Source of the DNA: Reclinomonas americana ATCC 50394
Taxonomy: Eukaryota
Assembly: GCA_048213135.1 (NCBI GenBank)
Contig: PS015152.1
Span: 9,807 to 64,393 of the forward strand
Direction of reading: 5' to 3'
Length of the DNA: 54,587 nt
In this document: one piece after another, positions 1 through 42,616 of the stretch
How the letters are laid out: the number at the start of each line of letters is the position of its first letter
Position numbering within the stretch: the stretch's first letter is position 1
Program-made: the position numbers and the translations under genes
Notes under the pieces: model-generated
The model's database searches: none
Told to the model about the DNA's origin: nothing
Seen by the model: only the letters and a program-made list of their open reading frames with translations

Positions 1-431
1 TACACGGTGCCAATGTGACCCACCAGCAGCTGCATTTGTGCGCCGGTCGCCAGTGACCACACGCGCACTGATGTGTCCACGCTCCCACTGACCGCGAGGC
101 GATCGTTGGGAGAGACGCCGACACAATGCACTGCATCAGCGTGGCCGTCCAGTCGGCGCACCGCCTGCCCGCTCGCCAGCGACCACACGCGCACAGTCTT
201 GTCTTGACTGCCACTGACAACGTGCTGGCCGTCGGTGGTGATGGCGACGGCCCACACCTCCTCTGTGTGTCCCTCCAGTCGGCGCACTTCTACTCCGCTG
301 GTCAGCGCACACACACGCACCACGGGCAGGTCGATGCAGCCGCACACGACGTGCTGTGCGTCGGGAGTGACGGCGATGCATGTCAGAGGGCCGAAGCGCA
401 CGCGGAGGCACTTGGAGGGGAGGGTGGACAT
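1..431 (-). CDS. WD40 array copy 1 (divergent; 3' part runs off the window)
   Basis: Manual translation from ATG 431: MSTLPSKCLRVRFGPLTCIAVTPDAQHVVCG...LEGHTEEVWAVAITTDGQHVVSGSQDKTVRVWSLASG...; frame stays open to base 1. Confidence 0.85.
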   Translation of the reverse strand, partial: MSTLPSKCLRVRFGPLTCIAVTPDAQHVVCGCIDLPVVRVCALTSGVEVRRLEGHTEEVWAVAITTDGQHVVSGSQDKTVRVWSLASGQAVRRLDGHADAVHCVGVSPNDRLAVSGSVDTSVRVWSLATGAQMQLLVGHIGTV

Positions 432-717
432 GGGGAGAAGTGACAGAGATAAGAAGTGCGTGACTCGGACGACGGACAAGCGGAAGTTCTTCAATCGATG
501 GACTCCTCGCGTCACAAAGAGCGACGGCAACTGAAACAGGATGAATGCCACCAGCAACAGCAGGGAACATTACAGTACATTTGACTTCATCGATTGTCTG
601 GAGGCAACAGAAACGAACAGAACTCTCTCTCTCTCTCTCTGTCTTCTCTCTCTTCTCTCTCTCTCTCTCTCATCTCCTCACTCGCTCTCTCTCTCATCCC
701 TTTCTCTCTGTCTCCTC

Positions 718-1830
718 TCACAAGTGGGACTCCGAATCCGCGCTGCGCCGAAGAAGCACAACCACCGCCTCCTCCACGATGAAGCAGCGCAACACAATCT
801 CCGCCAAACACCAACAACCAGGCTCTTCGTCGTCCTCGCCCTCGTCTTCTCGTTGCATCTCCTGCACGGCTCGCATCGCCTCGCGTGCTGCGCCCAACTC
901 AAACGCAGCGAGGCCACACGGAGTGGACCACACTCGCAAAGTATTGTCATTGCTACCACTCACAACATGCCGGCCATCGGGAGTCACCGCAACAGCATGC
1001 ACAGACCGATCGTGTCCCTCCAGCTGCTGCACCTCTCTTCCACTGACCAGTGACCACACTCGCACAATCGGGTCCGCAGCATTGCCTCCACTCACAACGT
1101 GCTCACCGTCGGGGGTGACGGAGACGTGCAACTTGTTACGAGTGTGTCCTTCAAACCGTCGTACTTCCTTGCCAGTCGTCATCGACCACACTCTCATAGT
1201 CCCGTCTCCACTGCAACTCACGACGTGCTTACCATCGGGTGCAATTGCAACCGACAGCACCTCACCTCTATGTCCCTTCAGCCGGCGTACTTCTGCGCCA
1301 TTCTCCAGTGACCACACACGCACGGTGTTGTCCCAGCTGCCACTAACAACATGCTGACCATCTGGCGTGACGGCAACAGAGTTCACTTCACTAGTGTGGC
1401 CCTCGAATCGCCTCACCTCCTCTCCACTCGCCAGTGACCACACACGCACAGTCCTGTCCCTACTACCGCTGACAATGTGAACCCCATCGGGAGTGATCGC
1501 CACACAATGCACGTCCTCGGTGTGCCCCTCCATCCGTCTCACCTCTGCTCCACTCTCCAGTGACCACACTCGCACTGTCATGTCTCCACCGCCGCTCACC
1601 GCATGCGCACCATCGGGAGTGATGGCGATCGAGTTCACATGACCCACGTGACCCTGCAGTTGTCGCACCTCAGCTCCAGTCGCCAGTGACCACACTCGCA
1701 CTGTCTTGTCCCCACTTCCAGAGACGATGTGACGACCGTCGGGAGTGATGGCGACGCATGTCACAGGGCCTGTGTGACCGGTGATGTGCTTGGAGGGGAG
1801 GAGAGTGAGGGGAGAGGGAGAAAGGGACAT
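718..1830 (-). CDS. WD40 array copy 2: intronless 7-blade propeller plus conserved C-terminal tail (370 aa)
   Basis: ATG 1830 (MSLSPSPLTLLPSKHITGH); seven GH...VRVW repeats of about 42 aa; tail CLAEIVLRCFIVEEAVVVLLRRSADSESHL; TGA. Confidence 0.92.
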   Translation of the reverse strand: MSLSPSPLTLLPSKHITGHTGPVTCVAITPDGRHIVSGSGDKTVRVWSLATGAEVRQLQGHVGHVNSIAITPDGAHAVSGGGDMTVRVWSLESGAEVRRMEGHTEDVHCVAITPDGVHIVSGSRDRTVRVWSLASGEEVRRFEGHTSEVNSVAVTPDGQHVVSGSWDNTVRVWSLENGAEVRRLKGHRGEVLSVAIAPDGKHVVSCSGDGTMRVWSMTTGKEVRRFEGHTRNKLHVSVTPDGEHVVSGGNAADPIVRVWSLVSGREVQQLEGHDRSVHAVAVTPDGRHVVSGSNDNTLRVWSTPCGLAAFELGAAREAMRAVQEMQREDEGEDDEEPGCWCLAEIVLRCFIVEEAVVVLLRRSADSESHL

Positions 1831-2084
1831 GGGGAAGGGAGGGGAGAGAGAGAGGGGGGACAATCACCTCTTGGGTTCGAGTTCGTGTGTGTGTGTGTGT
1901 GTGTGTGGGACAAGGACGGATTTTTGCATGCCTTGTGCACCGCACGTATCGCAATAGCAGCCTTGACACTGCTCGCATCGAATGCAGGAACACTCTGGCA
2001 ACTTAAGTAGGCATCGTTCACTTTGGGCCATCACAAAAAAGCACCAAAAAATCGAGCATCTCTCTCTCTCTCGTCCCTCTCTCC

Positions 2085-3200
2085 TCACAAGTGCGACTCC
2101 GAATCCATGTTGCGCCGAAGAAGCACAACCACCGCCTCTTCCACGATGAAGCAGCGCATCACAATCTCCGCCAAACACCAACAACCAGGCTCATCGTCCT
2201 CGCCCTCGTCAACCACACCTGCGCATGCTCGCTGCGTCTCTTGCACGGCTCGCATTGCCGTTCGTGCTGCATCAAGCTCAAACACAGCGAGGCCGCAGGG
2301 AGTGGACCACACTCGCAAAGTATTGTCGAAGCTACCACTGACAACATGCCGACCATCGGGAGACACGGCAATAGAACGCACACCTCCAGTGTGCCCCTCC
2401 AACTGTAGAACTTCTCTTCCACTGGCCAGTGACCACACTCGCACAATCGCGTCAAACACATTACCTCCACTAACAACGTGCTCACCGTCGGGGGTAACGG
2501 AGACGTGCATTATAGAATGAGTGTGTTCTTCAAACCGCCGCACTTCTTCTCCTGTCGCCATTGACCACACCCTCACAGTCTCGTCTCCACTGCAACTCAC
2601 AATGTGCTGACCATTGGGTGTAACGGCAACCGACCACACCCAATACGCGTGTCCCTCCAGTCGTCGCACTTCTGCGCCATTCTCCAGCGACCACACGCGA
2701 ACAGTCCTGTCATAGCTTCCGCAGACAACGTAGAGAGCATCCGGCGTGACGGCGACAAAATTCACTCCGCCAGTGTGGCCCTCAAACTGCCACACTTCCT
2801 GCCCCCTTGCCAGTGACCACACACGCACAGTGTCATCCCTGCTCCCGCTGATAATGTGGACCCCATCAGGAGTGATGGCAATACATTGCACTACCTCAGC
2901 GTGCCCCTTCAACAGACGCACTTCTTCTCCACTCTCCAGTGACCACACTCGCACTGAACGGTCAGAACTGCCACTCACGATGTGCTGGCCATTGGGAGTC
3001 ACGGCAACAGACAACACCATATCAGTGTGTCCCTCCAGTCGTCGCACCTCCTCTCCACTCTCAAGTGACCACACGCGCACTGTCTTGTCTTGGCTCCCGG
3101 AGATAATGTGCTGACCATTGGGAGTGATGGCGACAAACATAACAGCGCCCGTGTGACCAGTAATTCGTTTGGAGGGGAGGAGGAGGGGGGAGAGGGACAT
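2085..3200 (-). CDS. WD40 array copy 3 (371 aa)
   Basis: Intact ORF, 7 WD repeats, tail CLAEIVMRCFIVEEAVVVLLRRNMDSESHL. Confidence 0.92.
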   Translation of the reverse strand: MSLSPLLLPSKRITGHTGAVMFVAITPNGQHIISGSQDKTVRVWSLESGEEVRRLEGHTDMVLSVAVTPNGQHIVSGSSDRSVRVWSLESGEEVRLLKGHAEVVQCIAITPDGVHIISGSRDDTVRVWSLARGQEVWQFEGHTGGVNFVAVTPDALYVVCGSYDRTVRVWSLENGAEVRRLEGHAYWVWSVAVTPNGQHIVSCSGDETVRVWSMATGEEVRRFEEHTHSIMHVSVTPDGEHVVSGGNVFDAIVRVWSLASGREVLQLEGHTGGVRSIAVSPDGRHVVSGSFDNTLRVWSTPCGLAVFELDAARTAMRAVQETQRACAGVVDEGEDDEPGCWCLAEIVMRCFIVEEAVVVLLRRNMDSESHL

Positions 3201-3498
3201 GAGGAATGGAGAGAGCAGAGAGAGTGAAAGAGAAAAGAGAGAAGTGAGGGGGAACGATCAGCGCGCCGCCGGCGTGTGTTGAACTACCGGGACAGGACGA
3301 CGATGGCACTTCCTCGCGCACGACACCTGCACGCCGACTTGCAGCAGGCTTTCATCGATAGCGTCGAATGCAGGTGCAACAACTTGGCACAACACGTTCA
3401 CTGCAATGCGCTATTTCAAAGAGAAAACAAAAAGGCAACTCTTTCTTTCTTTCTCTCTTCTCATCCCTTTCTCTCTCTTCTCATCACCCTCTCTCCTC

Positions 3499-4620
3499 TC
3501 ACAAGTGCGACTCCGGGTCCACGCTGCGTCGATGTAGAACCACCGCCGCCTCCTCCACAATGAAGCACCGCAGCACAATCTCCGCCAGACACCAACAATC
3601 TGGCTCATCGTCGTCTTCATCTGCGTCGTCTACAGCTTCTCGTTGCACCTCCTGCACGGCCCGCATCGCCGCCCGCGCTGTGTAGAGCTCAAACGCAGCG
3701 AGACCACACGGAGTGGACCACACTCGCAAAGTCCTGTCATTACTGCCACTCACGACATGTCGACCATCAGCTGAGACGGCAACCGAACGCACACCTTTAG
3801 TGTGTCCCTCCAGCTGCCGCACCTCTCTTCCACTGGCCAACGACCACACTCGCACAATCGGGTCAAACACATTACCTCCACTAACAACGTGCTCACCGTC
3901 GGGGGTGACGGAGACGTGCATCAGGTTCTCATTGTGTCCTTCAAACCGCCGCACTTCTTCTCGTGTAGCCATTGACCACATTTTCATTGTCTCGGCGGAA
4001 CTGCAACTCACAATGTGCTGACCATCGGGTGTAACGGCGACAGAATTCACCCAACCTCTATGCCCGTCGAACCGGTGCACTTCGGCGACATTCTCCAGTG
4101 ACCACACGTGAACAGTCCTGTAATAGCTTCCGCTGACGACGTAGAGACCATCCGGCGTGACTGTGACAGAGTGCACCCACCAAGTGTGCCCTTCAAACTG
4201 CCACACTTCCTCTCCACTCGCCAGTGACCACACACGCACAGTGCCGTCCCTGCTCCCGCTGACAATGTGAACCCCGTCGGGAGTGATGGCAACACATTGC
4301 ACTACCTCAGCGTGTCCCTCTAACCGTCTCACTTCCACTCCACTCTCAAGTGACCACACTCGCACTGAACAGTCAGCACTGCCACTCACAATGTGCTGGC
4401 CATTGGGAGTCACGGCAACAGACAACACCATATCAGTGTGTCCCTTCAGTCGTCGCACCTCAACTCCAGTCGCCAAAGACCACACTCGCACTGTCTTGTC
4501 CCCACTTCCAGAGACGATGTGCGCGCCATCGGGGGTGATGGCGACACACCTCACAGCGTTCGTGTGACCAGTAATTCGTCCGGAGGGGAGGAGGATGAGT
4601 GGAGAGGGAGCCAGGGACAT
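3499..4620 (-). CDS. WD40 array copy 4 (373 aa)
   Basis: ATG 4620 (MSLAPSP) homologous to paralog starts; 7 WD repeats; tail ...SVDPESHL. Confidence 0.92.
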   Translation of the reverse strand: MSLAPSPLILLPSGRITGHTNAVRCVAITPDGAHIVSGSGDKTVRVWSLATGVEVRRLKGHTDMVLSVAVTPNGQHIVSGSADCSVRVWSLESGVEVRRLEGHAEVVQCVAITPDGVHIVSGSRDGTVRVWSLASGEEVWQFEGHTWWVHSVTVTPDGLYVVSGSYYRTVHVWSLENVAEVHRFDGHRGWVNSVAVTPDGQHIVSCSSAETMKMWSMATREEVRRFEGHNENLMHVSVTPDGEHVVSGGNVFDPIVRVWSLASGREVRQLEGHTKGVRSVAVSADGRHVVSGSNDRTLRVWSTPCGLAAFELYTARAAMRAVQEVQREAVDDADEDDDEPDCWCLAEIVLRCFIVEEAAVVLHRRSVDPESHL

Positions 4621-4965
4621 GAGGAAGGAAGGGGAGGGAGAGGAGATAAGGGAGCAGGGAGAGCACAGAGAGAGAGAGAGAGAGAGAGGAAACAGAGAGG
4701 CCAATCAAACTCTGGGTTCGTGTGTGTCCGCGTGTGCGCGTTGCGTGGGACCGGGACGATGGTGGACTTGGCAGCACTTCCTTGCGCATCACACCTAGAT
4801 CGCAACAGCAACCTTGACACTGCTCGCATCGAATGCAGGTGCATTCTGGATCAACAACCAGGCACATTCACTTTGGGTCATCACAAAAAACACGAAACAA
4901 CAAAACAAAATCAAGCATCTCACTCTCCAAATCTCTCTCTCTCTCTGTCTCTCGTCCCTCTCTCC

Positions 4966-6090
4966 TCACAAGTGCGACTCCGAATCCATGTTGCGCCGAA
5001 GAAGCACAACCTCCGCTTCCTCCACAATAAAACAGCGCATCACAATCTCCGCCAAACACCAACAACCAGGCTCATCGTCCTCGCCCTTGTCAACCACACC
5101 TGCGCATGCTCGCTGCGTCTCTTGCACGGCTCGCATTGCCGTTCGTGCTGCATCAAGCTCAAACGCAGCGAGGCCACACGGAGTGGACCAAACTCGCAAA
5201 GTGTTGTCGAAGCTACCACTGACAACATGCCGACCATCAGGTGAGACGGCAACAGAACGCACAAATTCAGTGTGTCCCTCCAACTGTAGCACCTCTCTTC
5301 CACTTGCCAGTGACCACACTCGCACAATCGGGTCCGCAGCATTGCCTCCACTCATAACGTGCTCACCGTCGGGGGTGACGGAGGCGAATAACAGGTTCTG
5401 AGTGTGTCCATCAAACCGCTGCACTTCTTCTCCTGTCGCCATTGACCACACTCTCACAGTCTTGTCTAAGCTGCAACTCACAATGTGCTGGCCATTGGGT
5501 GTAACGGCAACCGACCACAGCCAACTTCTATGCCCGTCCATCCAGCGCACTTCTGCACCATTCTCCAGTGACCACACCCGCACAGTCTTGTCATTGCTTC
5601 CGCTGACAACGTGGAGACCATCTGGCGTGACTGCGACAGACGTCACTCCCCCAGTGTGTCTCTCCAACCGTCTCACCTCCTGCCCACTCGCCAGTGACCA
5701 CACACGCACAGTTTTGTCACTGCCCCCGCTGACAACGAGCTGACCGTCGGGAGTGATGGCGACAGATTCCACTTCTCCAGTGTGGCCCTTCAACCGTCGC
5801 ACTTTTTCTCCACTCTCCAGTGACCACACACGCACGGTATGGTCATCACTGCCACTCACGATGTGCTGGCCATTGGGAGTGACAGCGACTGAGTTCACAT
5901 AGTGAGTGTGTCCTTTCAGTCGTCGTACCTCAGCTCCAGTCGCCAGTGACCACACGCGCACTGTCTTGTCCCCACTTCCAGAGATTATGTGCTGACCATC
6001 AGGAGTGATGGCGACACAAGTCACTGAGCCACTGTGCCCAGTGATGCGCTTGGAGGGGAGGAGGATGAGTGGAGAGGGAGCCAGGGACAT
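4966..6090 (-). CDS. WD40 array copy 5 (374 aa)
   Basis: Intact ORF, 7 WD repeats, tail ...NMDSESHL. Confidence 0.92.
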   Translation of the reverse strand: MSLAPSPLILLPSKRITGHSGSVTCVAITPDGQHIISGSGDKTVRVWSLATGAEVRRLKGHTHYVNSVAVTPNGQHIVSGSDDHTVRVWSLESGEKVRRLKGHTGEVESVAITPDGQLVVSGGSDKTVRVWSLASGQEVRRLERHTGGVTSVAVTPDGLHVVSGSNDKTVRVWSLENGAEVRWMDGHRSWLWSVAVTPNGQHIVSCSLDKTVRVWSMATGEEVQRFDGHTQNLLFASVTPDGEHVMSGGNAADPIVRVWSLASGREVLQLEGHTEFVRSVAVSPDGRHVVSGSFDNTLRVWSTPCGLAAFELDAARTAMRAVQETQRACAGVVDKGEDDEPGCWCLAEIVMRCFIVEEAEVVLLRRNMDSESHL

Positions 6091-6131
6091 GAGGAAGGAA
6101 GGGGATGGAGAGGAGATAAGAGATCAGGGAG

Positions 6132-6168
<37 letters not shown>

Positions 6169-6392
6169 CAGAGAGGCCAATCAAACTCGTGTGTGTGTGT
6201 GTGCGCGTGGGACCAGGACGGACATCGCAATAGGCTTTTACCTTGCTCACACCGAATGCAGGTGCACTAACAAACAAGCAGGCACAAATCGTTCACTTTG
6301 GGTCATCACAAAAAAACAAAACCACAAAACAAAATCAAGCATCTCACTCTCTACTAGCTCTCTCTCTCTCACTCTCTCGCCCCTCCCATGTT

Positions 6393-7505
6393 TCACAAGT
6401 GCGACTCGGGTTCCATGCTGCGCCGGTGCAGTACCACCGCGGCCTCCTCCACAATGAAGCAGCGCAGCACCATCTCCGCCAGACACCGCGAATCCGATTC
6501 TTCATCTTCGTCAGCCACAGCTTCTCGCTGCATCTCCTGCACGGCCCGCATCGCTGCCCGTGCTGTATCAACCTCAAACGCAGCGAGGCCACAAGGAGTG
6601 GACCACACACGCAAGATCCTGTCATAACCACCACTCACAACATGCCGACCATCAGGTGAGACGGCAACAGAGCTCACATAGCCATCGTGTCCCTCCAGCT
6701 GCCGCACCTCTCTTCCACTTGCCAGTGACCACACTCGCACAATCGGGTCAGCAGCATTGCCTGCACTCACAACGTGCTCTCCGTCGGGGGTGACTGAAAC
6801 GTGAACCTTGTAATAAGTGTGTCCTTCAAACCGTCGCACTTCCTTGCCAGTAGTCATTGACCATACTCTCATAGTATGGTCTAAACTACAACTAACAATG
6901 TGCTGACTATCAGGTGTAATGGCAACCGACGGTACCCAATTATAGTGTCCTTTAAACCGGCGCACTTCAGCACCAGTCTCCAGCGACCACACCCGCACAG
7001 TCTTGTCATTGCTTCCGCTGACAACGTAGAGAGCATCCGGCGTGACGGCGACAGAGTTCACTCCGTCAGTGTGGCCCTCAAACCGCCTCACTTCCTGCCC
7101 CTTTGCCAGTGACCACACACGCACAGTTTTGTCACTGCCCCCGCTGACAACGTGCTCCCCGTCGGGAGTGATGGCAACAGATTGCACCCATCCAGTGTGT
7201 CCCTCCAACCGTCGCACTTCTGCTCCACTCTCCAGTGACCACACTCGCACTGTGTAGTCAGAACTCCCACTCACGATGTGCTGGCCATTGGGAGTGACGG
7301 CAACAGAGTTCACATAACCCTCATGTTCCTTCAGTCGTCGTACCTCAGCTCCAGTCGCCAGAGACCACACGCGCACTGTCCTGTCTTCACTCCCAGAGAT
7401 AATGCACTGACCGTCGGGAGTGACGGCGACGCACGCCACTGAGCGAGTGTGACCAGTGATGCGCTTGGTGAGTAGGAGGAAGATTGGAGAGGGAGCCAGG
7501 GACAT
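6393..7505 (-). CDS. WD40 array copy 6 (370 aa)
   Basis: ATG 7505; 7 WD repeats; tail ...SMEPESHL. Confidence 0.92.
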   Translation of the reverse strand: MSLAPSPIFLLLTKRITGHTRSVACVAVTPDGQCIISGSEDRTVRVWSLATGAEVRRLKEHEGYVNSVAVTPNGQHIVSGSSDYTVRVWSLESGAEVRRLEGHTGWVQSVAITPDGEHVVSGGSDKTVRVWSLAKGQEVRRFEGHTDGVNSVAVTPDALYVVSGSNDKTVRVWSLETGAEVRRFKGHYNWVPSVAITPDSQHIVSCSLDHTMRVWSMTTGKEVRRFEGHTYYKVHVSVTPDGEHVVSAGNAADPIVRVWSLASGREVRQLEGHDGYVSSVAVSPDGRHVVSGGYDRILRVWSTPCGLAAFEVDTARAAMRAVQEMQREAVADEDEESDSRCLAEMVLRCFIVEEAAVVLHRRSMEPESHL

Positions 7506-7841
7506 GAGGAAGGGAGGGGAGGGAGAGGAGATAAGGGAGCAGGGAGAGCACAGAGAGAGAGAGAGGAAACAGAGAGAGAAGAAACAGAGAGGCAACAATC
7601 AACTCTGGTGTGCGTAGCGTGGGACCGGGACGATGGTGGACTTGGCAAAGCACTTCCTTGCGCATCACACCAAGATCGCAATAGCAACCTTGACACTGCT
7701 CGCATCGAATGCAGGTGCATTCTGGATCAACAAGCAGGCACAACTCGTTCACTTTGGGTCATCACAAAAAAAAACGAACAAAACAAAATCAAGCATCTCA
7801 CTCTCTAGCTCTCTCTCTCTCTCTCTCGTCCTTCTCTCTCC

Positions 7842-8960
7842 TCACAAGTGCGACTCCGAATCCATGTTGCGCCGAAGAAGCACAACCTCCGCTTCCTCCA
7901 AGATGAAACAGCGCATCACAATCTCCGCCAAACACCAACAACATGGCTCATCGTCCTCGCCCTAGTCAACCACACCTGCTCGCTGCATCTCCTGCACGGC
8001 CAGCATTGCCGTTCGCGCTGCGTAGAGCTCAAACGCAGCGAGGCCACACGGAGTGGACCACACTCGCAAAGTGTTGTCGAAGCTACCACTGACAACATGC
8101 CGACCATCGGGAGACACGGCAATAGAACGCACAAATTCAGTGTGTCCCTCCAACTGTAGCACCTCTCTTCCACTGGCCAGTGACCACACTCGCACAATCG
8201 GGTCCTCCCCGTTGCCTCCACTCATAACGTGCTTACCGCCGGGGGCGACGGAGACGTGCATCAGGTTCTCAGTGTGTCCTTCAAACCGCCGCACTTCTTC
8301 TCCTGTCGCCATTGACCACACTCTCACAGGCTCGTCTCCACTGCAACTCACAATGTGCTGACCATTGGGTGTAACGGCAACCGACCACACCCAATACGCG
8401 TGTCCCCCCACCCGTCGCACTTCAGCGCCATTCTCCAGTGACCACACGCGAACAGTCCTGTCATTGCTTCCGCAGACAACGTAGAGAGCATCCGGCGTGA
8501 CGGCGACAGAGTTCACTCCGCCAGTGTGGCCCTCAAACCGCCTCACTTCCTGCCCCCTCGCCAGTGACCACACACGTACAGTGTCATCCCTGCTCCCGCT
8601 GACAATGTGAACCCCGTCAGGAGTGATGGCCACACAATCCACTTCCTCTGTGTGTCCCTCCAACCGTCTCACTTCTTCTCCACTCTCCAGTGACCACACG
8701 CGCACTGAACGGTCAGCACTGGCACTCACAATGTGCTGGCCATTGGGAGTGACGGCGATTGCGTTCACATAATACGTGTGTCCCTCCAGTCGTCGCACCT
8801 CAACTCCAGTCGCCAAAGACCACACGCGCACTGTGGAGTCCGTACTCCCAGAGATAATGTGCGCACCATCGGGAGTGATGGCGACACATGTCACCGGGTC
8901 CGAGTGCCCCGTGATGCGCTTGGAGGGGAGGAGGATGAGTGGAGAGGGAGCGGTGGACAT
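7842..8960 (-). pseudogene. WD40 array copy 7 with premature TAG (7962-7964) upstream of the conserved tail motif
   Basis: Seven intact repeats; TAG where copy 3 has GAG (VVD*GEDDE). The downstream tail GEDDEPCCWCLAEIVMRCFILEEAEVVLLRRNMDSESHL is still in frame to TGA at 7842. Confidence 0.8.
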
Positions 8961-9244
8961 GAGAAAGGAAGGGGAGGGAGAGGCAGCAATCAATCGCAAA
9001 GTCGTCGATGGTGTGTGTGTGTGCGTGTGTCTGTGTGTGTTTGTCGTGTTTTGAAACGACTCGAAAACGTAGGACTACGTAGGACGATGTCGGCACTTCG
9101 GCATTCCTTGCGCACCACACCCAGCAGCAGTCGGTGTCTTGCTCGCATCGAATGCGAGTGCACTCTGGATCAACAACCAGGCACAACTGGTTCATTTGAT
9201 CTGTGAGGGCAACTCTTCTCTCTTCTGCCATCCTCTTCTCTTTG

Positions 9245-9805
9245 TCAATTATTGTGTCCTTCAAACCGGCGCACTTCCGCGCCATTCTCCAGTGACCACA
9301 CTCGCATAGTTTCGTCGCCACTCCCGCTAACAACGTAGAGACCATCCGGCGTGACGGCGACAGACGTCACCCATCCAGTGTGTCCCTCGAATCGCCTCAC
9401 CTCCTCTCCACTCGACAGCGACCACACACGCACGGTGTTGTCCCTGCTCCCGCTGACAGCATGCTGCCCGTCAGGAGTGATGGCAACAGACCGCACCGAC
9501 AAAGTGTGTCCCTCCAGCCGTCGCACTTCTTCTCCACTTTCCAGTGACCACACACGCACGGTATGGTCATCACAGCCACTCACGACGTGCTGCCCATCAG
9601 GAGTGACGGCGACTGAGTTCACTCCTGTAGTGTGTCCCTTCAGTCGTCGTACCTCAGCTCCAGTCCGCAGAGACCACACGCGCACTGTCTTGTCCCCACT
9701 TCCAGAGACGATGTGACGACCGTCGGGAGTGATGGCAACAAACATCACAGCGCCCGTGTGACCAGTGATGTGCTTGGAGACGAAGAGGACGGGAGAGAGG
9801 GACAT
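9245..9805 (-). pseudogene. WD40 array copy 8, truncated after 4 blades (186 aa)
   Basis: ATG 9805 (MSLSPVLFVSKHITGH); ends RRFEGHNN-TGA and runs directly into the family's usual 3' spacer sequence; blades 5-7 and tail absent. Confidence 0.8.
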
Positions 9806-9809
9806 GAGG

Positions 9810-9894
<85 letters not shown>

Positions 9895-10290
9895 CGCGCG
9901 TCGTCGTCGTACGACGACGACGACGACGACGCGACGTCGTCGCGCGCGACGACGACGACGACGACGACGACGACACGTACGACGACGTCGNNNNNNNNNN
10001 NNNNNNNNNNAGAACAGCTAGAGTGAGTGAGAGAGAGAGAGAGAGAGAAGTGAGGGGGAACGATCTGCGCTGCCGCGTGTGTTGAACTACCGGGACAGGA
10101 CGACGCTGGCACTTCCTCGCGCACGACTCACGCACGACGACTTGCAGCAGGCTTTCATGGATAACGTTGAATGCAGGTGCAACAACCTGGCACAACATGT
10201 TCATTGCGTTGAGCTATCTCAAAAAAGGCAACACTTTCTCTCTCTCTCTTCACATCCCTTTCTCTCTCTCTCTCATCACCCTCTCTCCTC

Positions 10291-11394
10291 TCACAAGTGC
10301 GACTCCGGGTCCATGCTGCGCCGGTGCAGCACCACCGCCGCCTCCTCCACAATAAAACACCGCAGCACCATCTCTGGCAGGCACCGCGAATCGTACTCGC
10401 GGTTGACAGCTCTTCGTCGAATCCCCTGTACGGCCAGCATCGCCGCCCGCGCAGCGTGGAGCTCCCGCCGCGCGAGCCCGCTGGAAGTGGACCACACACG
10501 CACGGTCCCATCAAAGCCCGCGCTTGCCACATGCTGACCATCGGGTGACGCGGCTACACATCGCACCGATCGTTCGTGTCCATCCAACTGTCGCACCTCC
10601 TCCTCCTGTCCACTCGCCAGCGACCACACTCGGACTGTCCTGTCCGTGCTGCCACTGAGAATGTGCAGACCGTCGGGAGTGACAGCAACAGTGAGCACAT
10701 GGCTAATGTGTCCCTGCAACCGTAGCACTTCTTCGCCACTCGCAAGTGACCACACAATCGCTGTGTGGTCGTCACTGCCGGAGACAATGTGCTGCCCATC
10801 GCGGGTGACGGCAACCGATCGCACCCCACACTCGTGAGCCTCCGAACGTCGCACTTCACTGCCACTAGCCAGAGACCACACTGCCAGCGTGCCCATCGGA
10901 CTCCCAATCACCAAGTGCACCCCATCGGGAGCGACGGCAAGACAATTCACTCCATACATGAAGAACTCGCGGAGCCGCAGCACCAGCTGTCCACTCTCCA
11001 GCGACCACACTCTCACCGTCTCATCAATGCTGCCGCTCACAACGCGCTGCCCGTCGAGAGTGATGGCCACCGCATTCACCTCCCCGACGTGTCCCTTCAG
11101 TATGTGCACTTTCTTCCCACTCTCCAGTGACCACACCCGCACTCTACAGTCGAAGCTGCCGCTCACCGCAAGCGCACCATCGGGAGTGATGGCGACTGAG
11201 TTCACACAACCAGTGTGTCCCTTCAGCAGACGCACTTTCTTCCCGCTCTCCAGTGACCACACACACAAAGTCTTGTCGGCACTCCCAGAGACGATGTGAC
11301 GAGCGTCGGGAGTGATGGCGAGGCACATCACTGGGCCATCGTGCCCAGTGAGGCAGTAGGAGGGAAGGAGGAGGGGAGAGGGAGAGAGGGACAT
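10291..11394 (-). CDS. WD40 array copy 9, more divergent paralog (367 aa)
   Basis: 7 WD repeats with degenerate blade 4 (EFFMYGVNCLAV...GSPMGTLAVW); tail DSRCLPEMVLRCFIVEEAAVVLHRRSMDPESHL. Confidence 0.9.
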   Translation of the reverse strand: MSLSPSPLLLPSYCLTGHDGPVMCLAITPDARHIVSGSADKTLCVWSLESGKKVRLLKGHTGCVNSVAITPDGALAVSGSFDCRVRVWSLESGKKVHILKGHVGEVNAVAITLDGQRVVSGSIDETVRVWSLESGQLVLRLREFFMYGVNCLAVAPDGVHLVIGSPMGTLAVWSLASGSEVRRSEAHECGVRSVAVTRDGQHIVSGSDDHTAIVWSLASGEEVLRLQGHISHVLTVAVTPDGLHILSGSTDRTVRVWSLASGQEEEVRQLDGHERSVRCVAASPDGQHVASAGFDGTVRVWSTSSGLARRELHAARAAMLAVQGIRRRAVNREYDSRCLPEMVLRCFIVEEAAVVLHRRSMDPESHL

Positions 11395-11636
11395 GAAGAA
11401 AGGGGGGAGAGAGGAGAGCAGAGAGGGATGGAGAGAGCCAGTAGTCGACCGGGACCAGGACGACGGTGAACTTTGTCACTTCACATCTGAAGCATCACAA
11501 CGAGCAGCCCCATTGGCCGTGCTCATGTTGAATGTAGAGTGCGACAACCAGGTGCACAACAGTCACTTCAGTAAACATAAAATACGAAACAACAAAAATC
11601 AGCAACTATCTCCCCCTCCTCCTCCCTCTCCTTTTT

Positions 11637-11940
11637 TTACAAGTGCGGCTCTGGGTCCATGCTGCGCCGGTGCAGCACAAGCGCCGCTTCCTCCACAATG
11701 AAGCACCGCAACACCAATTCTGGCAGACACTGCGCATCTGATTCTTCATCGTCGTCAACAATCTCTACACGCTGCATCTCCTGCACGGCTCGCATTGCCT
11801 CGCGTGCTGCGCCCAACTCACACGCAGCGAGACCACACGGAGTGGACCACACACGCAAGATCCTGTCATAACCACCACTCACAACATGCCAACCGTCGGG
11901 AGTCACGGCAACAGCGCGCACATATCCATCGTGTCCCTCG
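11637..11940 (-). CDS. WD40 array copy 10, 3' part (blade 7 plus tail), cut by a gap
   Basis: EGHDGYVRAVAVTPDGWHVVSGGYDRILRVW...CLPELVLRCFIVEEAALVLHRRSMDPEPHL-TAA. Confidence 0.85.
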
Positions 11941-12016
11941 NNNNNNNNNNNNNNNNNNNNCCCCCTCTCTCTCTCCTTGCCCTTCTCTCCCTCTGCTCTC
12001 CTTCCCTCCCCTGATC

Positions 12017-12825
12017 ATGTCCCTCACTCCCTCTCCCCTCACTCTCCTCCCCTCCAAGCGCATCACGGGGCACTCGGACTCGGTGACATGTGTCGCCATC
12101 ACTCCCGATGGTGCGCACATTATCTCTGGGAGTACGGACTCCACAGTGCGCGTGTGGTCTTTGGCGACTGGAGTTGAGGTGCGACGACTGGAGGGACACA
12201 CTTTTTATGTGACCGCTGTTGCCGTGACTCCCGATGGGCAGCACATCGTGAGTGGCGGCTTCGACTGTTCAGTGCGAGTGTGGTCACTGGAGAGTGGAGA
12301 AGAAGTGCGACGGCTGGAGAGACACACTGCGGGAGTGAAATCTGTGGCCATCACTCCCGACGGGGTGCACATTGTCAGCGGGGGCAGAGACAAGATAATG
12401 ATTGTGTGGTCACTGGCGAGGGGGAAGGAGGTGAGACGACTGGTGGGACACACTTGGTGGGTGAACTCTGTCGCCGTCACGCCGGACGGTCTCCACGTTG
12501 TCAGCGGGAGTGGCGACAAGTGGATGCTGGTGTGGTCACTGGAGAATTGCGCTGTAGTGCGACACATGAAGGGACATAGAGGTCGGGTGCTTTCTGTCTC
12601 CGTTACACCCGATGGTCAGCACGTCGTGAGTTGCAGTGACGACAGGACTATGAGAGTGTGGTCAATGACGACTGGCAAGGAAGTGCGACGGTTTGACGGA
12701 AACACTCGTGACAAGGTGCACGTCTCTGTCACCCCCGACGGCAAGCACGTTGTAAGTGGGGGCAACGCTTCTGACCCAGTTGTTCGAGTGTGGTCGCTGG
12801 CAAGTGGGAGAGAGGTGCGACAGCT
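12017..12825 (+). CDS. WD40 array copy 10, 5' part (blades 1-6), on an apparently inverted contig
   Basis: ATG 12017 (MSLTPSP); six repeats ending ...GAG GTG CGA CAG CT at the gap; joins in frame to the 11637-11940 fragment. Confidence 0.85.
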
Positions 12826-12957
12826 NNNNNNNNNNNNNNNNNNNNACTCACTCACTCACTCACTCACTCACTCACTCACTCAGTCACTCACACTCACTCA
12901 CTCACTCACTCACACACACACACACACTCCCTCACTCTCTCTCTCTCTCAACGCAAC

Positions 12958-13022
12958 AAGTTCCGCGCCGCGCGGATCTCCTCCAGCTTGGCCTGCAGCT
13001 CCGGGATCAGTTGTTGCGCCAT
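12958..13022 (-). CDS. Probable first exon of the NAD+ synthetase gene (displaced in the scaffold)
   Basis: ATG 13022: MAQQLIPELQAKLEEIRAARN+TT, then donor GTTGCGT; resembles from memory the N-terminus (LxPxLQxxLxxxRxxRNF) of short protist NAD synthetases. Confidence 0.65.
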
Positions 13023-13332
13023 AGTGATCACAAAAAAAAAGTAAAGGACAAAAAACCATGCAATTGCAACCCGCCCTTCTCTCGTAAAATCGCGCGTTCT
13101 CGATGCCAACGCATGCGCAACGCATGCGGTGAGTGTTTTCTGATGCGCGACTCGCGGGCGCGTTGAATGGATCTAGGCATGACTGTTGCAACCGCTCGTG
13201 ACGCGTGAGATACATTGATTTAGAGGTGGAAAAGTTGCGTTGTTTTGCTGTCGCGTGTGCGCGGTGTTGCAGTGTGTGTATGTGTGTGTGTGGCGCAGTG
13301 TAGAGCGTTGATGGAGGAGTCTGTACCACCAT

Positions 13333-13344
13333 CGTCCTGGTCCC
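13333..13344 (+). promoter_or_regulatory. Conserved upstream motif CGTCCTGGTCCC of the WD40 family (representative copy)
   Basis: Near-identical motif precedes most paralog ATGs: 1907, 3289, 4747, 6209, 7621, 10092 and 11451 on minus; 33293, 34652, 36755 and 38141 on plus. Confidence 0.55.
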
Positions 13345-13488
13345 GCTGCGCGTCTTCAAACACACATCGACGTGGCGAGCAGATTGTTCCACCTCACTTC
13401 TCTCTTTTCTCTCTCTCTCTCCCTATCTCTGCTCTCTCTCTCTCTCCTTGCCCTTCTCTCCCTCTGCTCTCCTTCCCCTTCCTTTCTC

Positions 13489-14610
13489 ATGTCCACTACT
13501 CCCTCTCCCCTCACTCTCCTCCCCTCCAAGCGCATCACTGGTCACAGTGGCTCAGTGACTTGTGTCGCCATCACTCCCGATGGCGCGCACATTATCTCTG
13601 GGAGTACGGACTCCACAGTGCGCGTGTGGTCACTTGAGAGTGGAGCCGAGGTACGACGACTGGAAGGGCATGTGGGCTATGTGATCTCAGTCGCTGTCAC
13701 TCCCAATGGCCAGCACATCGTGAGTGGCAGTTCTGACCATACGGTGCGAGTGTGGTCACTGGAGAGTGGAGAAGAAGTGCGACGGTTGAAGGGACACACT
13801 GGATGGGTGCTTGCTGTTGCCGTCACTCCCGACGCGGTTCACACTGTCAGCGGGAGCAAGGACTACATCGTGCGTGTGTGGTCGCTGGCGAGTGGAGAGG
13901 AGGTGAGGCGATTCGAGGGCCACACTAGGGAAGTGTGGTCTGTCGCCATCACGCCGGATGGTCTCCACGTTGTCAGCGGAAGCAATGACAAGACTGTTCG
14001 CGTGTGGTCACTGGAGAATGGCGCAGAAGTGCGACGGCTGGTGGGACACGCGTATTGGGTGTGGTCGGTTGCCATTGCACCCGATGAACAGCACGTTGTG
14101 AGTTGCAGTGGAGACGGGACTGTGAGAGTGTGGTCAATGGCGACAGGAGAAGAAGTGCGTCGGTTTCAAGGACACACACACACTGTGATTCACGTCTCCG
14201 TCACCCCCGACGGTAAACACGTTATGATTGGAGGCAACGCTGCTGACCCGATTGTGCGAGTGTGGTCACTGGCAAGCGGAAGAGAGGTGCGACAGCTGGA
14301 GTGGCACTCTGGAGGTGTGCGCTCTGTTGCCATCTCACCTGATGGTCGGCATGTTGTGAGTGGTAGTTATGACAGAACTGTACGAGTGTGGTCCACTCCG
14401 TGTGGTCTCGCTGCCTGTGAGTTGGGCGCAGCACGCGAGGCGATGCGAGCTGTGCAGGAGATGCTACGAGAAGCTGCGGTTGACGAGGGCGAGGACGACG
14501 ATGAGCTGGATTGTTGGTGTCTGGCGGAGATTGTGCTGCGGTGCTTCATCGTGGAGGAGGCGGCGCTTGTGCTGCACCGGCGCAGCGTGGACCCGGAGTC
14601 ACACTTGTGA
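13489..14610 (+). CDS. WD40 family copy 11 (373 aa)
   Basis: ATG 13489 (MSTTPSP); 7 repeats; tail CLAEIVLRCFIVEEAALVLHRRSVDPESHL. Confidence 0.92.
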   Translation: MSTTPSPLTLLPSKRITGHSGSVTCVAITPDGAHIISGSTDSTVRVWSLESGAEVRRLEGHVGYVISVAVTPNGQHIVSGSSDHTVRVWSLESGEEVRRLKGHTGWVLAVAVTPDAVHTVSGSKDYIVRVWSLASGEEVRRFEGHTREVWSVAITPDGLHVVSGSNDKTVRVWSLENGAEVRRLVGHAYWVWSVAIAPDEQHVVSCSGDGTVRVWSMATGEEVRRFQGHTHTVIHVSVTPDGKHVMIGGNAADPIVRVWSLASGREVRQLEWHSGGVRSVAISPDGRHVVSGSYDRTVRVWSTPCGLAACELGAAREAMRAVQEMLREAAVDEGEDDDELDCWCLAEIVLRCFIVEEAALVLHRRSVDPESHL

Positions 14611-23838: not shown

Positions 23839-23882
<44 letters not shown>

Positions 23883-25874: not shown

Positions 25875-26816
25875 TCACTTGCACACACTCAACTGCTCCT
25901 CCCCACGAAGCACCCGCCGGCACAACTCCGCCAACAACACATCCTGCCTCTCACCATCCGCCCTCAACTGCGCCATTTGCACAACCAACGCCGCCAGCTC
26001 CTCGTCGTTTTCAACGGCCTCCTTCTCCTTCTCCACCTCCACCACCTTCTCCTTCTCCTTCTCCACCTCCTGCACCTGCACATCCTCCACCATTCTCCTC
26101 TCCTCCTTCTTCACCAGCATCGACTCCCTGTCCGCCAAATGCCCCGGCAGCGGCCGCGACCTCGCTTGCGTTCGCTTCCGTTGCGGCTCGTCATCAGGCG
26201 CCTCCGCCTCGTCAATACGCCACATTGCCCTGGCCTTCTCCTCCTCCTCCTCCGAATCCTCGTCATTCTCCACGTGCACTATCCCCAGCATCATGGACGC
26301 CAGTACCCGCGCTTCCACCAGCTTTGCCAGCTCGTTGTGGTGATAGAAACGCGCCATTTGCGCCGGCGAACGCCCACTGTCGTCGAGCATCTCGCACATG
26401 TTCGGAAACGCCAACATCAGCATTTCGGCCACCTCCGTATGCCCGTTGGCGCAGGCCACGTGGAGCGCCGTCTGCTCTCCCCTGCGGAGTTTTCCCATGC
26501 GTTCCGAGCAGCGATGCGGATCCGCCAGCAGCCACTTGACGACGTTGGCGTGTCCATTGCGCGCGGCCGCCGTCAGTGGCGACACGTGGTGGAGGGAGCT
26601 GAGGCCGGCCAGCCACGGGCCCATGCTCGTCTCGTTCCACAGGAACTCGAGAATGTGCAAGTGGCCGGCCTCGGCGGCGTAGCGGTACGGGCTCATGCCC
26701 TTGGTCGACTCTTCGATGATGGTGGAGGAGGCCGAGGGGGAGGAGTTCACGAGGGCGCGCAGGCCGCTGAGGTCGCCGGCGTGGGCGAGTTCCCAGGCGG
26801 CTTTTTCGCCGAGCTT
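25875..26816 (-). CDS. Ankyrin-repeat protein with acidic/coiled-coil C-terminus (main exon; 5' exons and exact 3' end unresolved)
   Basis: SPYRYAAEAGHLHILEFL, SPLTAAARNGHANVVKWLL, TALHVACANGHTEVAEML, GRSPAQMA; CAG acceptor at 26817-26819 after a pyrimidine tract. Confidence 0.82.
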   Translation of the reverse strand, partial: KLGEKAAWELAHAGDLSGLRALVNSSPSASSTIIEESTKGMSPYRYAAEAGHLHILEFLWNETSMGPWLAGLSSLHHVSPLTAAARNGHANVVKWLLADPHRCSERMGKLRRGEQTALHVACANGHTEVAEMLMLAFPNMCEMLDDSGRSPAQMARFYHHNELAKLVEARVLASMMLGIVHVENDEDSEEEEEKARAMWRIDEAEAPDDEPQRKRTQARSRPLPGHLADRESMLVKKEERRMVEDVQVQEVEKEKEKVVEVEKEKEAVENDEELAALVVQMAQLRADGERQDVLLAELCRRVLRGEEQLSVCK

Positions 26817-31541: not shown

Positions 31542-31599
<58 letters not shown>

Positions 31600-34769: not shown

Positions 34770-35882
34770 ATGTCCTCCGCTCCCTCTCCACTCATCCTCG
34801 TCCCCTCCAAGCGCACCACCGGTCACACGGGCGCTGTGATGTGCGTCGCCATCACTCCCGATGGTCAGCACGTCGTCAGTGGGGGTTCTGATCATTCAGT
34901 GCGTGTGTGCTCTTTGGCAACTGAAGCTGAGGTGCGACGACTGGAGGGACACACTGGTTGTGTGAACTCAGTCGTCGTCACTCCCGATGGACAACACATC
35001 GTAAGTGGCAGTGCTGACCGTACAGTGCGCGTGTGGTCACTGGAGAGTGGAGCAGAAGTGAGACGGCTGGAGGGACACACTGGATGGGTGCAATCTGTTG
35101 CCATCACTCCCGACGGGGAGCTCGTTGTCAGCGGGAGCAGGGACAACACCGTGCGTGTGTGGTCACTGGCGAGTGGGCAGGAGGTGCGACGAATGGAGGA
35201 GCACACCAGGGAAGTGAACTCTGTTGCCATCACGCCGGATGGTCTCTACGTCGTCAGCGGAAGCCATGACAAGACTGTGCGGGTGTGGTCACTGGAGACT
35301 GGCGCTGAAGTGCGACGGCTGAAAGGACACGAAGGTTGGGTGCTGTCGGTTGCCATTACACCCGATAGTCAGCACATTGTGAGTTGCAGTTATGACGGGA
35401 CCATGAGAGTGTGGTCAATGACGACTGGCAAGGAAGTACGACAATTTGATGGACACAGACATAGCAAGATTCACGTCTCCGTCACACCGGACGGTGAGCA
35501 CGTAATAAGTGGAGGTAATTTGTATGATCCGGTTGTGCGAGTGTGGTCACTGGCAAGTGGAAGAGAGGTGCTACAGCTTGAGGGACACACTGGAGGTGTG
35601 CGCGCTGTGGCCGTGACTCCCGATGGTTTGCATGTTGTGAGTGGTAGTTATGACACGACTTTGCGAGTGTGGTCCACTCCCTGCGGCCTCGCTGCGTTTG
35701 AGGTTGATACAGCACGAGCGGCGATGCGGGCTGTGCAGGAGATGCTGCGAGAATCAGTTGTTGACGAAGATGAAGAAGCGGATTCGCGGTGTTTGCCAGA
35801 GATGGTGCTGCGGTGCTTCATTGTGGAGGAGGCGGCGGTTGTACTGCACCGGCACAGCATGGATCCAGAGTCGCACTTGTGA
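34770..35882 (+). CDS. WD40 second array copy B (370 aa)
   Basis: ATG 34770 (MSSAPSP); 7 repeats; conserved tail. Confidence 0.92.
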   Translation: MSSAPSPLILVPSKRTTGHTGAVMCVAITPDGQHVVSGGSDHSVRVCSLATEAEVRRLEGHTGCVNSVVVTPDGQHIVSGSADRTVRVWSLESGAEVRRLEGHTGWVQSVAITPDGELVVSGSRDNTVRVWSLASGQEVRRMEEHTREVNSVAITPDGLYVVSGSHDKTVRVWSLETGAEVRRLKGHEGWVLSVAITPDSQHIVSCSYDGTMRVWSMTTGKEVRQFDGHRHSKIHVSVTPDGEHVISGGNLYDPVVRVWSLASGREVLQLEGHTGGVRAVAVTPDGLHVVSGSYDTTLRVWSTPCGLAAFEVDTARAAMRAVQEMLRESVVDEDEEADSRCLPEMVLRCFIVEEAAVVLHRHSMDPESHL

Positions 35883-37959: not shown

Positions 37960-38186
37960 AAAGGGAGAGGATGATGAGAGAAGGAGAATTCTAGGAAGAG
38001 TTGTTTTTTTGTATTTTGTCCATTCTTTTCGCGATAGCTCAATGCAGTGAACGTGTTGTGCCTGGTTGTTGATCCACAGTGCACCTGCATTCGATGCAAG
38101 GCTGCTGATGCGATACAGGGCACAACGAAGTGCCCAAGTTCGTCCTGGACCCACAAACACACTCACAGGCAAACAAGCACGCACAC

Positions 38187-38240
<54 letters not shown>

Positions 38241-38328
38241 TACATACATACACACGCCACACACACGAGCTCGCATCGCAGAATTGATTGTTGCTTCTCT
38301 CTGTTCTCCTCTCTCTCCTCTCCCCATC

Positions 38329-39444
38329 ATGTCCCTCGCTCCCTCTCCACTCATCCTCCTCCCCTCCAAGCGCATCACTGGTCACACGGGTCCCGTGCCT
38401 TGCGTCGCCATCACTCCCAATGGTGAGCACATTGTATCTGGGAGTACGGACTACACAGTGCGAGTGTGGTCTCTGGCGACTGGAGCTGAGGTACGACGAC
38501 TGAAGGGACATGAGGGTTATGTGTTATCTGTTGCCGTCGCTCCCAATGGCCAGCACATCGTGAGTGCCAGTGCTGACCGTACGGTGCGAGTGTGGTCACT
38601 TGAGAGTGGAGCAGAAGTGAGACGGTTGGAGGGGCACACTGATGTAGTGGAATCTGTTGCCATCACTCCCGACGGGGATCACATAATAAGCGGGAGTTGG
38701 GATGCGACAGTGCGTGTGTGGTCACTGGCGAGGGGGCAGGAGTTGAGGCGATTCGGGGGCCACACCAGTGAAGTGAACACTGTCGCCGTCACGCCAGATG
38801 GTCTCTACGTTGTCAGCGGAAGCAATGACAGGACTGTTCGCGTGTGGTCACTGGAGAATGGCGCAGAAGTGCGACGGCTGAAGGGACACAAAGGCTGGGT
38901 GCTGTCGGTTGCCATTGCACCCGATGGTCGGCACATTGTGAGTTGCTGTACCAGTTCTGTGCGAGTGTGGTCAATGACGTCTGGCAAGGAAGTGCAACGG
39001 TTTGAAGGACACACTCGTGACAAGATGCACGTCTCCGTCACCCCCGACGGTAAGCACGTTATGAGTGGAGGCAACGGATGTGACCCAATTGTGCGAGTGT
39101 GGTCACTGGCAAGTGGAAGAGAGCTGCAACAGTTGAAGGGACACGATGGATACGTGGGCTCTGTTGCCGTGACTCGCGATGGTCGGCATGTTGTGAGTGG
39201 TAGTTATGACAGGACTTTGCGAGTGTGGTCCACTCCTTGTGGCCTCGCTGCGTGTGAGGTTGATACAGCGCGGGCGGCGATGCGGGCCGTGCAGGAGATG
39301 CAGCGAGCAGGTGTGGTTGACGAGGGCGAGGACGATGAGCCAGGTTGTTGGTGTTTGGCGGAGATTGTGATGCGCTGTTTTATTGTGGAGGAAGCGGCGG
39401 TGGTACTGCACCGGCGCACCATGGAACCCGAGTCGCACTTGTGA
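38329..39444 (+). CDS. WD40 second array copy D (371 aa)
   Basis: ATG 38329 (MSLAPSP); 7 repeats; tail CLAEIVMRCFIVEEAAVVLHRRTMEPESHL. Confidence 0.92.
   Translation: MSLAPSPLILLPSKRITGHTGPVPCVAITPNGEHIVSGSTDYTVRVWSLATGAEVRRLKGHEGYVLSVAVAPNGQHIVSASADRTVRVWSLESGAEVRRLEGHTDVVESVAITPDGDHIISGSWDATVRVWSLARGQELRRFGGHTSEVNTVAVTPDGLYVVSGSNDRTVRVWSLENGAEVRRLKGHKGWVLSVAIAPDGRHIVSCCTSSVRVWSMTSGKEVQRFEGHTRDKMHVSVTPDGKHVMSGGNGCDPIVRVWSLASGRELQQLKGHDGYVGSVAVTRDGRHVVSGSYDRTLRVWSTPCGLAACEVDTARAAMRAVQEMQRAGVVDEGEDDEPGCWCLAEIVMRCFIVEEAAVVLHRRTMEPESHL

Positions 39445-42545: not shown

Positions 42546-42616
<71 letters not shown>

Follow-up and report, generated by a model that had tools for sequence, protein, structure and literature searches.

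Why a set of paralogous genes should keep one protein scaffold almost unchanged and yet differ strongly at a few regularly spaced residues is the question raised by a 54,587-nucleotide stretch of Reclinomonas americana ATCC 50394 (contig PS015152.1 of assembly GCA_048213135.1, positions 9,807 to 64,393 of the forward strand), referred to here as the window. Its first 39,444 positions hold a family of genes encoding WD40 propellers, and a six-frame motif scan, combined with open reading frame (ORF) lists and a read-through of the odd cases, gave 17 loci in this part, where the initial annotation had counted 15 copies. The variation among the paralogs was concentrated on the top face of the predicted propeller, and diversifying selection on this putative binding face is supported by pairwise substitution rates and by codon site models. 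We read the family, with a probability of roughly 0.6, as a germline repertoire of binding modules, each a stand-alone seven-bladed propeller joined to an unvarying tail that would serve for coupling. Loci are labelled A0-A9, B1-B2, S and C1-C4, and their positions are listed below.

Propeller fold and location of the variable residues

Each copy consisted of 17 N-terminal residues, seven WD40 blades and a conserved tail of ~70 residues, and the seven-blade layout was common to all full copies. Pfam searches of three proteins returned WD40-type families only (3/3; PF00400 with E 4.6e-78 for A2 and 3.4e-67 and 1.2e-74 for the other two, in 7, 6 and 7 stretches, respectively). Neither a NACHT NTPase nor an N-terminal effector domain was found in these three proteins with Pfam, nor in 10 other ORFs of the window, and the proposal that the family lacks NACHT and carries a short C-terminal module instead was thus borne out, with no further Pfam domain and a conserved tail present. 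An AlphaFold model of A2, built from an alignment of 30 sequences (A2, 10 other paralogs and 19 metagenomic WD40 proteins), had a mean predicted local distance difference test score (pLDDT) of 87, with 10-residue block means of ~87-99 over residues 11-300, and its 28 strands formed seven four-stranded blades of a closed propeller. With this model, the top Foldseek match was the propeller of Thermomonospora PkwA (5YZV; template modelling score by target 0.98, root-mean-square deviation 0.9, 40% identity), followed by the WRAP-T designer proteins, the 'highly repetitive propeller' 2YMU and WDR5, and a sequence search of the PDB returned the same set (2YMU, E 5e-119). A homology search with the whole protein, in which 3556 matches were scored among 8000 candidates, contained no family member among the 120 matches listed, all of which were at most 56% identical.

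Twelve full-length copies could be aligned with few gaps. The initial annotation had described scaffold motifs (VA[V/I]TPDG, SG, TVRVWSL, EVRR) as almost fixed and the residues following GH and SGS as variable, and had quoted six blade-2 strings (GHVGHVN, GHTDMVL, GHTHYVN, GHTFYVT, GHTKGVN and GHALQVH); all six strings are present, the scaffold motifs hardly vary, and the variation falls in the columns that it named. The top-face positions were set beforehand from WD40 structure as GH+2, +3, +4 and +6 and SGS+1 and +3 of each blade, which gave a top set of 43 codons after adjusting for a 2-residue insertion in blade 6. Across the six canonical blades, the nonsynonymous rate (dN) relative to the global synonymous rate (dS) exceeded 1 only at blade positions +2, +3, +4, +6, +22 and +24 (1.37-2.12), and was at most 0.90 at the remaining 36 positions. 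In the confident seven-bladed model, all six fast positions fall within D-A or B-C loops, on the top face to which the initial annotation had assigned them. When loop classes were labelled by the strands of the A2 model, dN was 0.31 in the top D-A loops and 0.37 in the top B-C loops, compared with 0.125 in the bottom A-B loops, 0.107 in the bottom C-D loops and 0.105 in the strands; the variation thus lies on one face of the propeller. The frequent occurrence of W, Y, F, R, E and D at the variable positions, as first described, was borne out in part: W, Y and F together made up 13.0% of the top positions vs 4.2% of the scaffold, and the commonest residues at the top were G, T, R and N.

The same pattern recurred within a single gene. 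In the singleton S, blades 1-6 were mutually 83-91% identical and differed mainly at the top positions, with a proportion of nonsynonymous differences (pN) of 0.56 at +22 and +24 versus 0.066 elsewhere, and a synonymous proportion (pS) of ~0.29.

Tests for diversifying selection

Pairwise rates were counted by the Nei-Gojobori method (NG86) in 11 copies, with A8 left out. The scaffold had dS 0.35 and dN 0.09, giving a dN/dS ratio (omega) of 0.25. At the 43 top codons, dN was 0.69 against a family dS of 0.40, a ratio of 1.70 (bootstrap 1.38-2.08; none of 2000 resamples gave 1 or less). Among blade pairs in which scaffold pS was below 0.05 (8 pair-blades), pN at the top positions had already reached 0.21. 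When the comparison was limited to codon pairs without an amino acid difference, pS was 0.30 at the top, against 0.27 for scaffold codons and 0.36 for those of the tail. Targeted hypermutation of the top codons was rejected, since this synonymous divergence was the same at top and scaffold sites.

For site models we wrote codon-likelihood code for this analysis (F3x4 codon frequencies), in which the transition/transversion ratio (kappa), omega and the tree scale were fitted for each segment, and site likelihoods were then computed on a grid of omega with kappa and branch lengths held at their values under the single-ratio model M0. With a separate tree for each blade, an M2a-like model improved on an M1a-like model by twice a log-likelihood (lnL) difference (2dlnL) of 61.6, with 0.067 of sites in a class with omega 3. 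Five sites had a posterior probability (P) above 0.95 (alignment columns 64, 82, 189, 209 and 232), and all five belonged to the top set, which makes up 43 of 378 columns; a version resembling FUBAR (fast, unconstrained Bayesian approximation), with variable synonymous rate, found six sites, 6/6 in the top set. In 100 simulations under the fitted null the maximum 2dlnL was 6.8, and in 100 further null simulations, in which the two halves of every segment followed different trees to mimic hidden recombination, the 95th percentile was 13.75 and the maximum 18.7. The statistic was 44.0 without A8, 80.4 when C3 and A6 were also left out, and 69.4 when A2 was left out as well. With one tree for the whole gene, 2dlnL rose to 98.7 and 9/9 M2a-like sites with P>0.95 were on the top face, but only 8/15 FUBAR-like sites were; because the single tree places the other 7 of 15 off the top face, ignoring recombination evidently adds false sites. 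The proposal that this is a fast-evolving family was therefore upheld in two ways, in that dN at the top exceeds the family dS and that the comparison of site models prefers a site class whose omega is above 1.

Recombination among the paralogs

The nearest paralog switched along every gene. The pairwise homoplasy index (PHI) was 0.522, compared with a permuted mean of 0.649 (standard deviation 0.0066), with 0 of 1000 permutations as low, and eight per-segment trees were better than one tree by 609 lnL units. Corresponding blades of different paralogs were 84% identical in nucleotides, as against 67% for the blades of a single gene compared with one another. The paralogs are thus recombinant mosaics with exchange at roughly the scale of a blade, in which blade order is kept. 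C2 and C3 shared a 475-nucleotide tract covering blades 4-7, in which they differed at one position at the most. No other long tract of identity was present, and this one adjoins a gap of 684 N; A2 and A4 shared a near-identical tract of 135 nucleotides in the tail.

The C-terminal tail and its relatives

The tail follows blade 7 and contains a helix, an acidic linker and a second helix with the core CL[AP]E[IM]V[LM]RCFIVEEA; the two helices are predictions from modelling. It was conserved, with omega 0.23 and dN 0.117. No Pfam family was found in any of three tails even at E values up to 10, the ESM Atlas gave no usable match, a word-based search yielded 68 candidates with none at E up to 0.01, and a metagenome scan with the tail alignment yielded 229 pattern matches, none of which was confirmed. 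A profile search of the PDB with the tail gave a best E of 0.44, to ribosomal protein eL34, and this likeness was treated as chance. The eL34 alignment spans ~60 positions of its C-terminal part (..CG.. followed by C..E.i.R.F..EE..V), as for instance in the tail at 35655-35879 on the plus strand.

A profile search of 1.84 billion representative proteins gave four matches, of which three were credible and one was a false match of low complexity. The closest, P0121 (E 4e-27), is an ORF of the Reclinomonas americana expressed sequence tag (EST) EC795383.1 in EukProt and is 58-68% identical to the copies in the window; since it derives from an EST, transcription of a relative is shown for a jakobid. 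The other two, P0122 and P0123 (394 and 381 residues), aligned end to end with the window copies at ~25% identity and kept the LRCF-x-x-E-[DE] helix. The tail motif was kept in these two distant proteins as well as in S and in D, a distant relative further along the window. Longer or fused forms of the propeller and tail were absent from the tail-profile matches among the 1.84 billion representatives, and so the combination of propeller and tail forms a small, separate family.

The extreme C-terminus was -ESHL in 12/12 aligned array copies. Other endings were -EPHL in A9, -PIF in S, -MYL in P0121, -DLR in P0122 and -LWW in P0123.

Organization and state of the loci

Ten loci (A0-A9) lie on the minus strand within 3-11940, and the plus strand carries B1-B2 (12017-14610), the singleton S (24608-25734) and C1-C4 (33401-39444). 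The ORFs were intact at 11 of the 17 loci (A1-A5, A8, B2 and C1-C4), with lengths of 363-374 residues. The loci, together with the distant relative D, are as follows.

A0: 3-431, minus strand; N-terminal 143 residues of a more diverged paralog, cut off by the start of the window
A1: 718-1830, minus strand; intact, 370 residues, seven WD40 blades and tail, C-terminus -ESHL
A2: 2085-3200, minus strand; intact, 371 residues, the copy used for the structure model
A3: 3499-4620, minus strand; intact, 373 residues
A4: 4966-6090, minus strand; intact, 374 residues
A5: 6393-7505, minus strand; intact, 370 residues
A6: 7842-8960, minus strand; full-length, with a single in-frame TAG at 7962-7964 where paralogs have GAG or AAG
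A7: 9245-9805, minus strand; truncated, 186 residues, blades 1-4 followed directly by the usual 3' spacer
A8: 10291-11394, minus strand; intact, divergent, 367 residues
A9: 11637-11940, minus strand; fragment of blade 7 and tail, cut by the N gap at 11941-11960
B1: 12017-12825, plus strand; blades 1-6, cut by the N gap at 12826-12845
B2: 13489-14610, plus strand; intact, 373 residues
S: 24608-25734, plus strand; putative exon 1 at 24608-24619, intron at 24620-24687 and exon 2 at 24688-25734, 352 residues
C1: 33401-34492, plus strand; intact, 363 residues
C2: 34770-35882, plus strand; intact, 370 residues
C3: 36853-37959, plus strand; intact, 368 residues, with an N gap just upstream
C4: 38329-39444, plus strand; intact, 371 residues
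D: 41327-44400 (end approximate), plus strand; distant relative outside the arrays, with WD40 pieces in different frames

The nonsense codon of A6 could stem from a sequencing error or show that the copy has recently become a pseudogene. The family had been described as intronless, which fails for S, in which no in-frame ATG is available unless a first exon of 12 nucleotides and a GT-AG intron of 68 nucleotides are assumed; we infer this two-exon model from the sequence. S carries the family tail motif, and its seven blades are very alike. The WD40 pieces of D span approximately 41327-42025 and 43977-44150 and are followed at 44305 by the start of a tail piece with LQVLRCFVLEDARV; since the pieces are in different frames, D probably contains introns rich in (CT)n. 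D carries the tail motif LRCF-x-x-ED, which shows that the family predates the arrays.

In the regular parts of the arrays the start-to-start distance was 1370-1470 nucleotides, corresponding to tandem units of ~1.4 kb. The spacers (~250-350 nucleotides, e.g. 1831-2084 and 3201-3498) were alike between units and showed a constant order of stop codon, (GA)n, conserved blocks, (CA)n, (CT)n and ATG. The CT-rich tract abuts the ATG and continues into a pyrimidine-rich stretch of the first 13 codons, with no AG between tract and ATG. The description of the copies as closely related is true only in a relative sense, as pairwise nucleotide identity was 79-90% among paralogs and 68-72% between A8 and the others, with a family dS of ~0.40.

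The window contains ten runs of N, five of 20 N each (at 9991, 11941, 12826, 20031 and 46227) and five longer ones, and four of these gaps cut or flank family loci (upstream of A7, at A9, at B1 and upstream of C3). This mixture of fixed and sized gaps, together with the small number of introns, is similar to the Newbler-scaffolded, intron-poor genome assembly of a jakobid described in PMC7050145. The head-to-head junction of the minus- and plus-strand arrays coincides with the N gap at 11941-11960; because the junction is an assembly gap, the opposed orientation first described is insecure and could be a scaffolding artefact. GC content was ~0.45-0.63 outside the gap-bearing stretches.

Interpretation and alternative explanations

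Under the repertoire interpretation, tandem duplication and blade-scale exchange would generate the copies, and selection would keep the top face diverse. The scaffold, the bottom loops and the tail are held by purifying selection (omega ~0.25), whereas at the ~43 residues that ring the top face amino acid replacement outpaces synonymous change. The top face may bind different ligands in different paralogs, and the invariant tail, with a core of hhLRCFh-E-[DE] that persists in relatives only ~25% identical, may couple all paralogs to one partner, for which adaptors, effectors and localisation factors would be candidates. The pressure could come from diverse or changing targets, e.g. prey, parasite, viral or fast-evolving self proteins. 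A more specific version, in which a jakobid-like protist has a germline repertoire of dozens of propeller sensors that are independent of NOD-like receptors (NLRs), are diversified on the top face, are reshuffled by blades and recognize prey, parasites or viruses, with signalling through one new, conserved C-terminal helix module to a common effector, is a tentative proposal that we regard as unlikely.

Several results weigh against the repertoire interpretation, and some of them speak for two alternatives, namely an ordinary amplified WD40 gene (through dosage or decaying duplication) whose unconstrained top loops drift neutrally, and the misassembly of ~80-90% identical paralogs in a gappy draft as the source of the mosaics and of part of the copy diversity. 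When the top codons were compared with their own synonymous count, NG86 omega was 0.96 with a bootstrap interval of 0.72-1.23 that spans 1, i.e. neutral-looking; this local value may arise because path-averaging at codons that differ at two or three bases inflates dS, which is an argument and not a proof. High posterior probability was reached at just 5-6 single sites, the codon models were home-made and approximate (fixed kappa and branch lengths, grid of omega), the per-blade trees were built from ~126 nucleotides each, and strong recombination inflates such tests and can mimic omega above 1. Two of the 17 loci are broken (A6 by its nonsense codon, A7 by truncation), and the tail of the A2 model has low confidence (pLDDT ~27-65). 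Drift is nevertheless a rather improbable explanation, given that dN at the top is 1.70 times the family dS with a bootstrap lower bound of 1.38, that a 2dlnL of 61.6 is far beyond the maxima of both simulated nulls (6.8 and 18.7), and that eleven ORFs are intact with a scaffold omega of 0.25 despite a dS of 0.4; moreover, the bottom loops, which are equally exposed, are constrained like the strands, and exposure alone is thus insufficient. As to the assembly, the 54.6 kb of draft sequence are interrupted by 10 N gaps, four of which cut or flank family loci, and some of the mosaicism could be artefactual, as could the C2/C3 tract, the sole long identical one, beside its 684-N gap. We consider the misassembly alternative very unlikely, since the nearest neighbour switches along every gene and not just by the gaps, most loci are gap-free with intact frames, and the periodic top-face pattern occurs within each copy and among the blades of S.

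Two further alternatives concern the tail. The proteins could be substrate receptors of ubiquitin ligases, with the conserved C-terminal helix (CLPEMVLRCFIVEE) as the docking site for a Skp1-, Elongin- or DDB1-type adaptor and the variable top face as the selector of substrates; this is a specific form of the repertoire reading, and the pairing of a variable propeller with an invariant short helical module speaks for it. By eye, we take the tail helix to resemble the first helix of an F-box or BC-box. We hold this version to be doubtful, as no F-box, SOCS box or other Pfam family was found in the three tails at E up to 10, neither box was among the best 25 Pfam matches listed for whole proteins, and the PDB profile search with the tail reached no better than the E of 0.44 for eL34. 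Furthermore, the box is N-terminal to the propeller in known F-box/WD40 proteins, and the WDxR motif ends the repeats of DDB1-binding WD40 (DCAF) proteins, whereas the blades here end in VRVWSL-x. The -ESHL of the array copies, on the other hand, matches the pattern of the peroxisomal targeting signal type 1 (PTS1), [SAC][KRH][LM], and the family could accordingly be directed to peroxisomes and belong with, or act beside, the Pex7-like WD40 proteins Gcp1-3. The only named relative (P0121) comes from a jakobid, and the study 10.1101/790865 places Gcp1-3 nearest to Pex7 and reports a predicted PTS1 on most Gcp1. This peroxisomal reading is nonetheless improbable in our judgement: -SHL is no family trait, being missing in A9, S, P0121, P0122 and P0123, acidic residues stand immediately upstream of it, no Pex7 chain was among the best 60 PDB sequence matches, and the tail profile found no annotated Gcp-bearing species, e.g. 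Naegleria, among the 1.84 billion representatives. In the same study (10.1101/790865), Gcp1-3 are described as conserved orthologues and not as hypervariable arrays.

Neighbouring features

Just downstream of S, and convergent with it, lies an ankyrin-repeat ORF of 273 residues (25875-26696, minus strand; Ank_2, E 9e-17), for which 5.8 billion proteins contained no close relative and one weak match of 30% identity. An RCC1-repeat ORF fragment (19921-20298, minus strand; RCC1_2, E 1.6e-5) is broken by a 20-N gap. Two long ORFs of low complexity, at 51326-52678 on the plus strand and 52662-53645 on the minus strand, consist of EAAPVVVAQ-type and P/A-rich PPPAAAPQPTKT repeats, and the second had no Pfam match. 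An Rfam scan of the whole window gave 0 matches.

Comparison with known systems

The F-box and MATH-BTB genes of nematodes and plants are expanded, positively selected families of substrate receptors, and the family described here resembles them in its many tandem paralogs, its variable binding domain and its invariant short docking module. It is unlike them in that no F-box, BTB or SOCS domain was detectable in it and in that the order of the modules is reversed. Gcp1-3, according to 10.1101/790865, are Pex7-like WD40 proteins that co-occur with a mitochondrial type II secretion system in jakobids, heteroloboseans and malawimonads. By description, they share with our family a stand-alone WD40 domain and, in some Gcp with a predicted PTS1, an ending comparable to the -SHL of the array copies.

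In sequence and fold, the best matches were the highly repetitive WD40 propellers of prokaryotes (2YMU and PkwA 5YZV; PMC5587647), and the metagenomic relatives in the A2 alignment, which are 37-56% identical, share the scaffold motif VAVTPDG..VSGS.D.TVRVW. Such prokaryotic propellers usually occur within long multidomain proteins such as kinases and STAND (signal transduction ATPases with numerous domains) NTPases. The propeller of the window, unlike these, stands alone, carries a eukaryote-specific tail and is encoded in a tandem gene array. Searches of open-access text turned up no protist for which an array of hypervariable, stand-alone WD40 genes has been described.

The closest parallel in the mode of evolution is with the HNWD genes of the fungus Podospora anserina (HET-E, HET-D and HET-R), and it had been drawn at the outset. 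In PMC2873952 the positively selected HNWD codons are 7, 9, 25 and 27, placed at the top of the propeller, and their spacing equals that of the fast positions +4, +6, +22 and +24 in our family, which has two further fast positions, +2 and +3. Both families have consensus-like WD40 repeats, exchange between family members and diversifying selection on top-face positions. Unlike HNWD, the proteins of the window have neither a HET effector domain nor a NACHT NTPase, blade 1 starts after 17 residues, a novel C-terminal tail is present, and diversity is held as many paralogs. Unlike HET-D and HET-E, the number of repeats is fixed at seven and repeats are not shuffled or homogenized within genes; only S has very similar blades (1-6). 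We rate the family as showing HNWD-like diversification of a propeller without an NLR.

In STAND/NLR proteins of fungi, and probably of bacteria, WD40 repeats with a hypervariable top face are known to act as the sensor; in the window, this evolutionary signature occurs in small stand-alone proteins, in which a conserved tail with almost no relatives in public data occupies the place of the NTPase. If the family is indeed a recognition repertoire, diversification based on propellers would be able to work without an NLR chassis, the tail would mark a coupling partner worth finding, and the locus would give a first handle on the recognition of non-self or of other targets in a deep-branching and poorly studied protist lineage. 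If the more specific proposal of a jakobid sensor repertoire were also true, the repertoire would represent a type of innate recognition that has not been described in Discoba, built on a plan other than that of NLRs.

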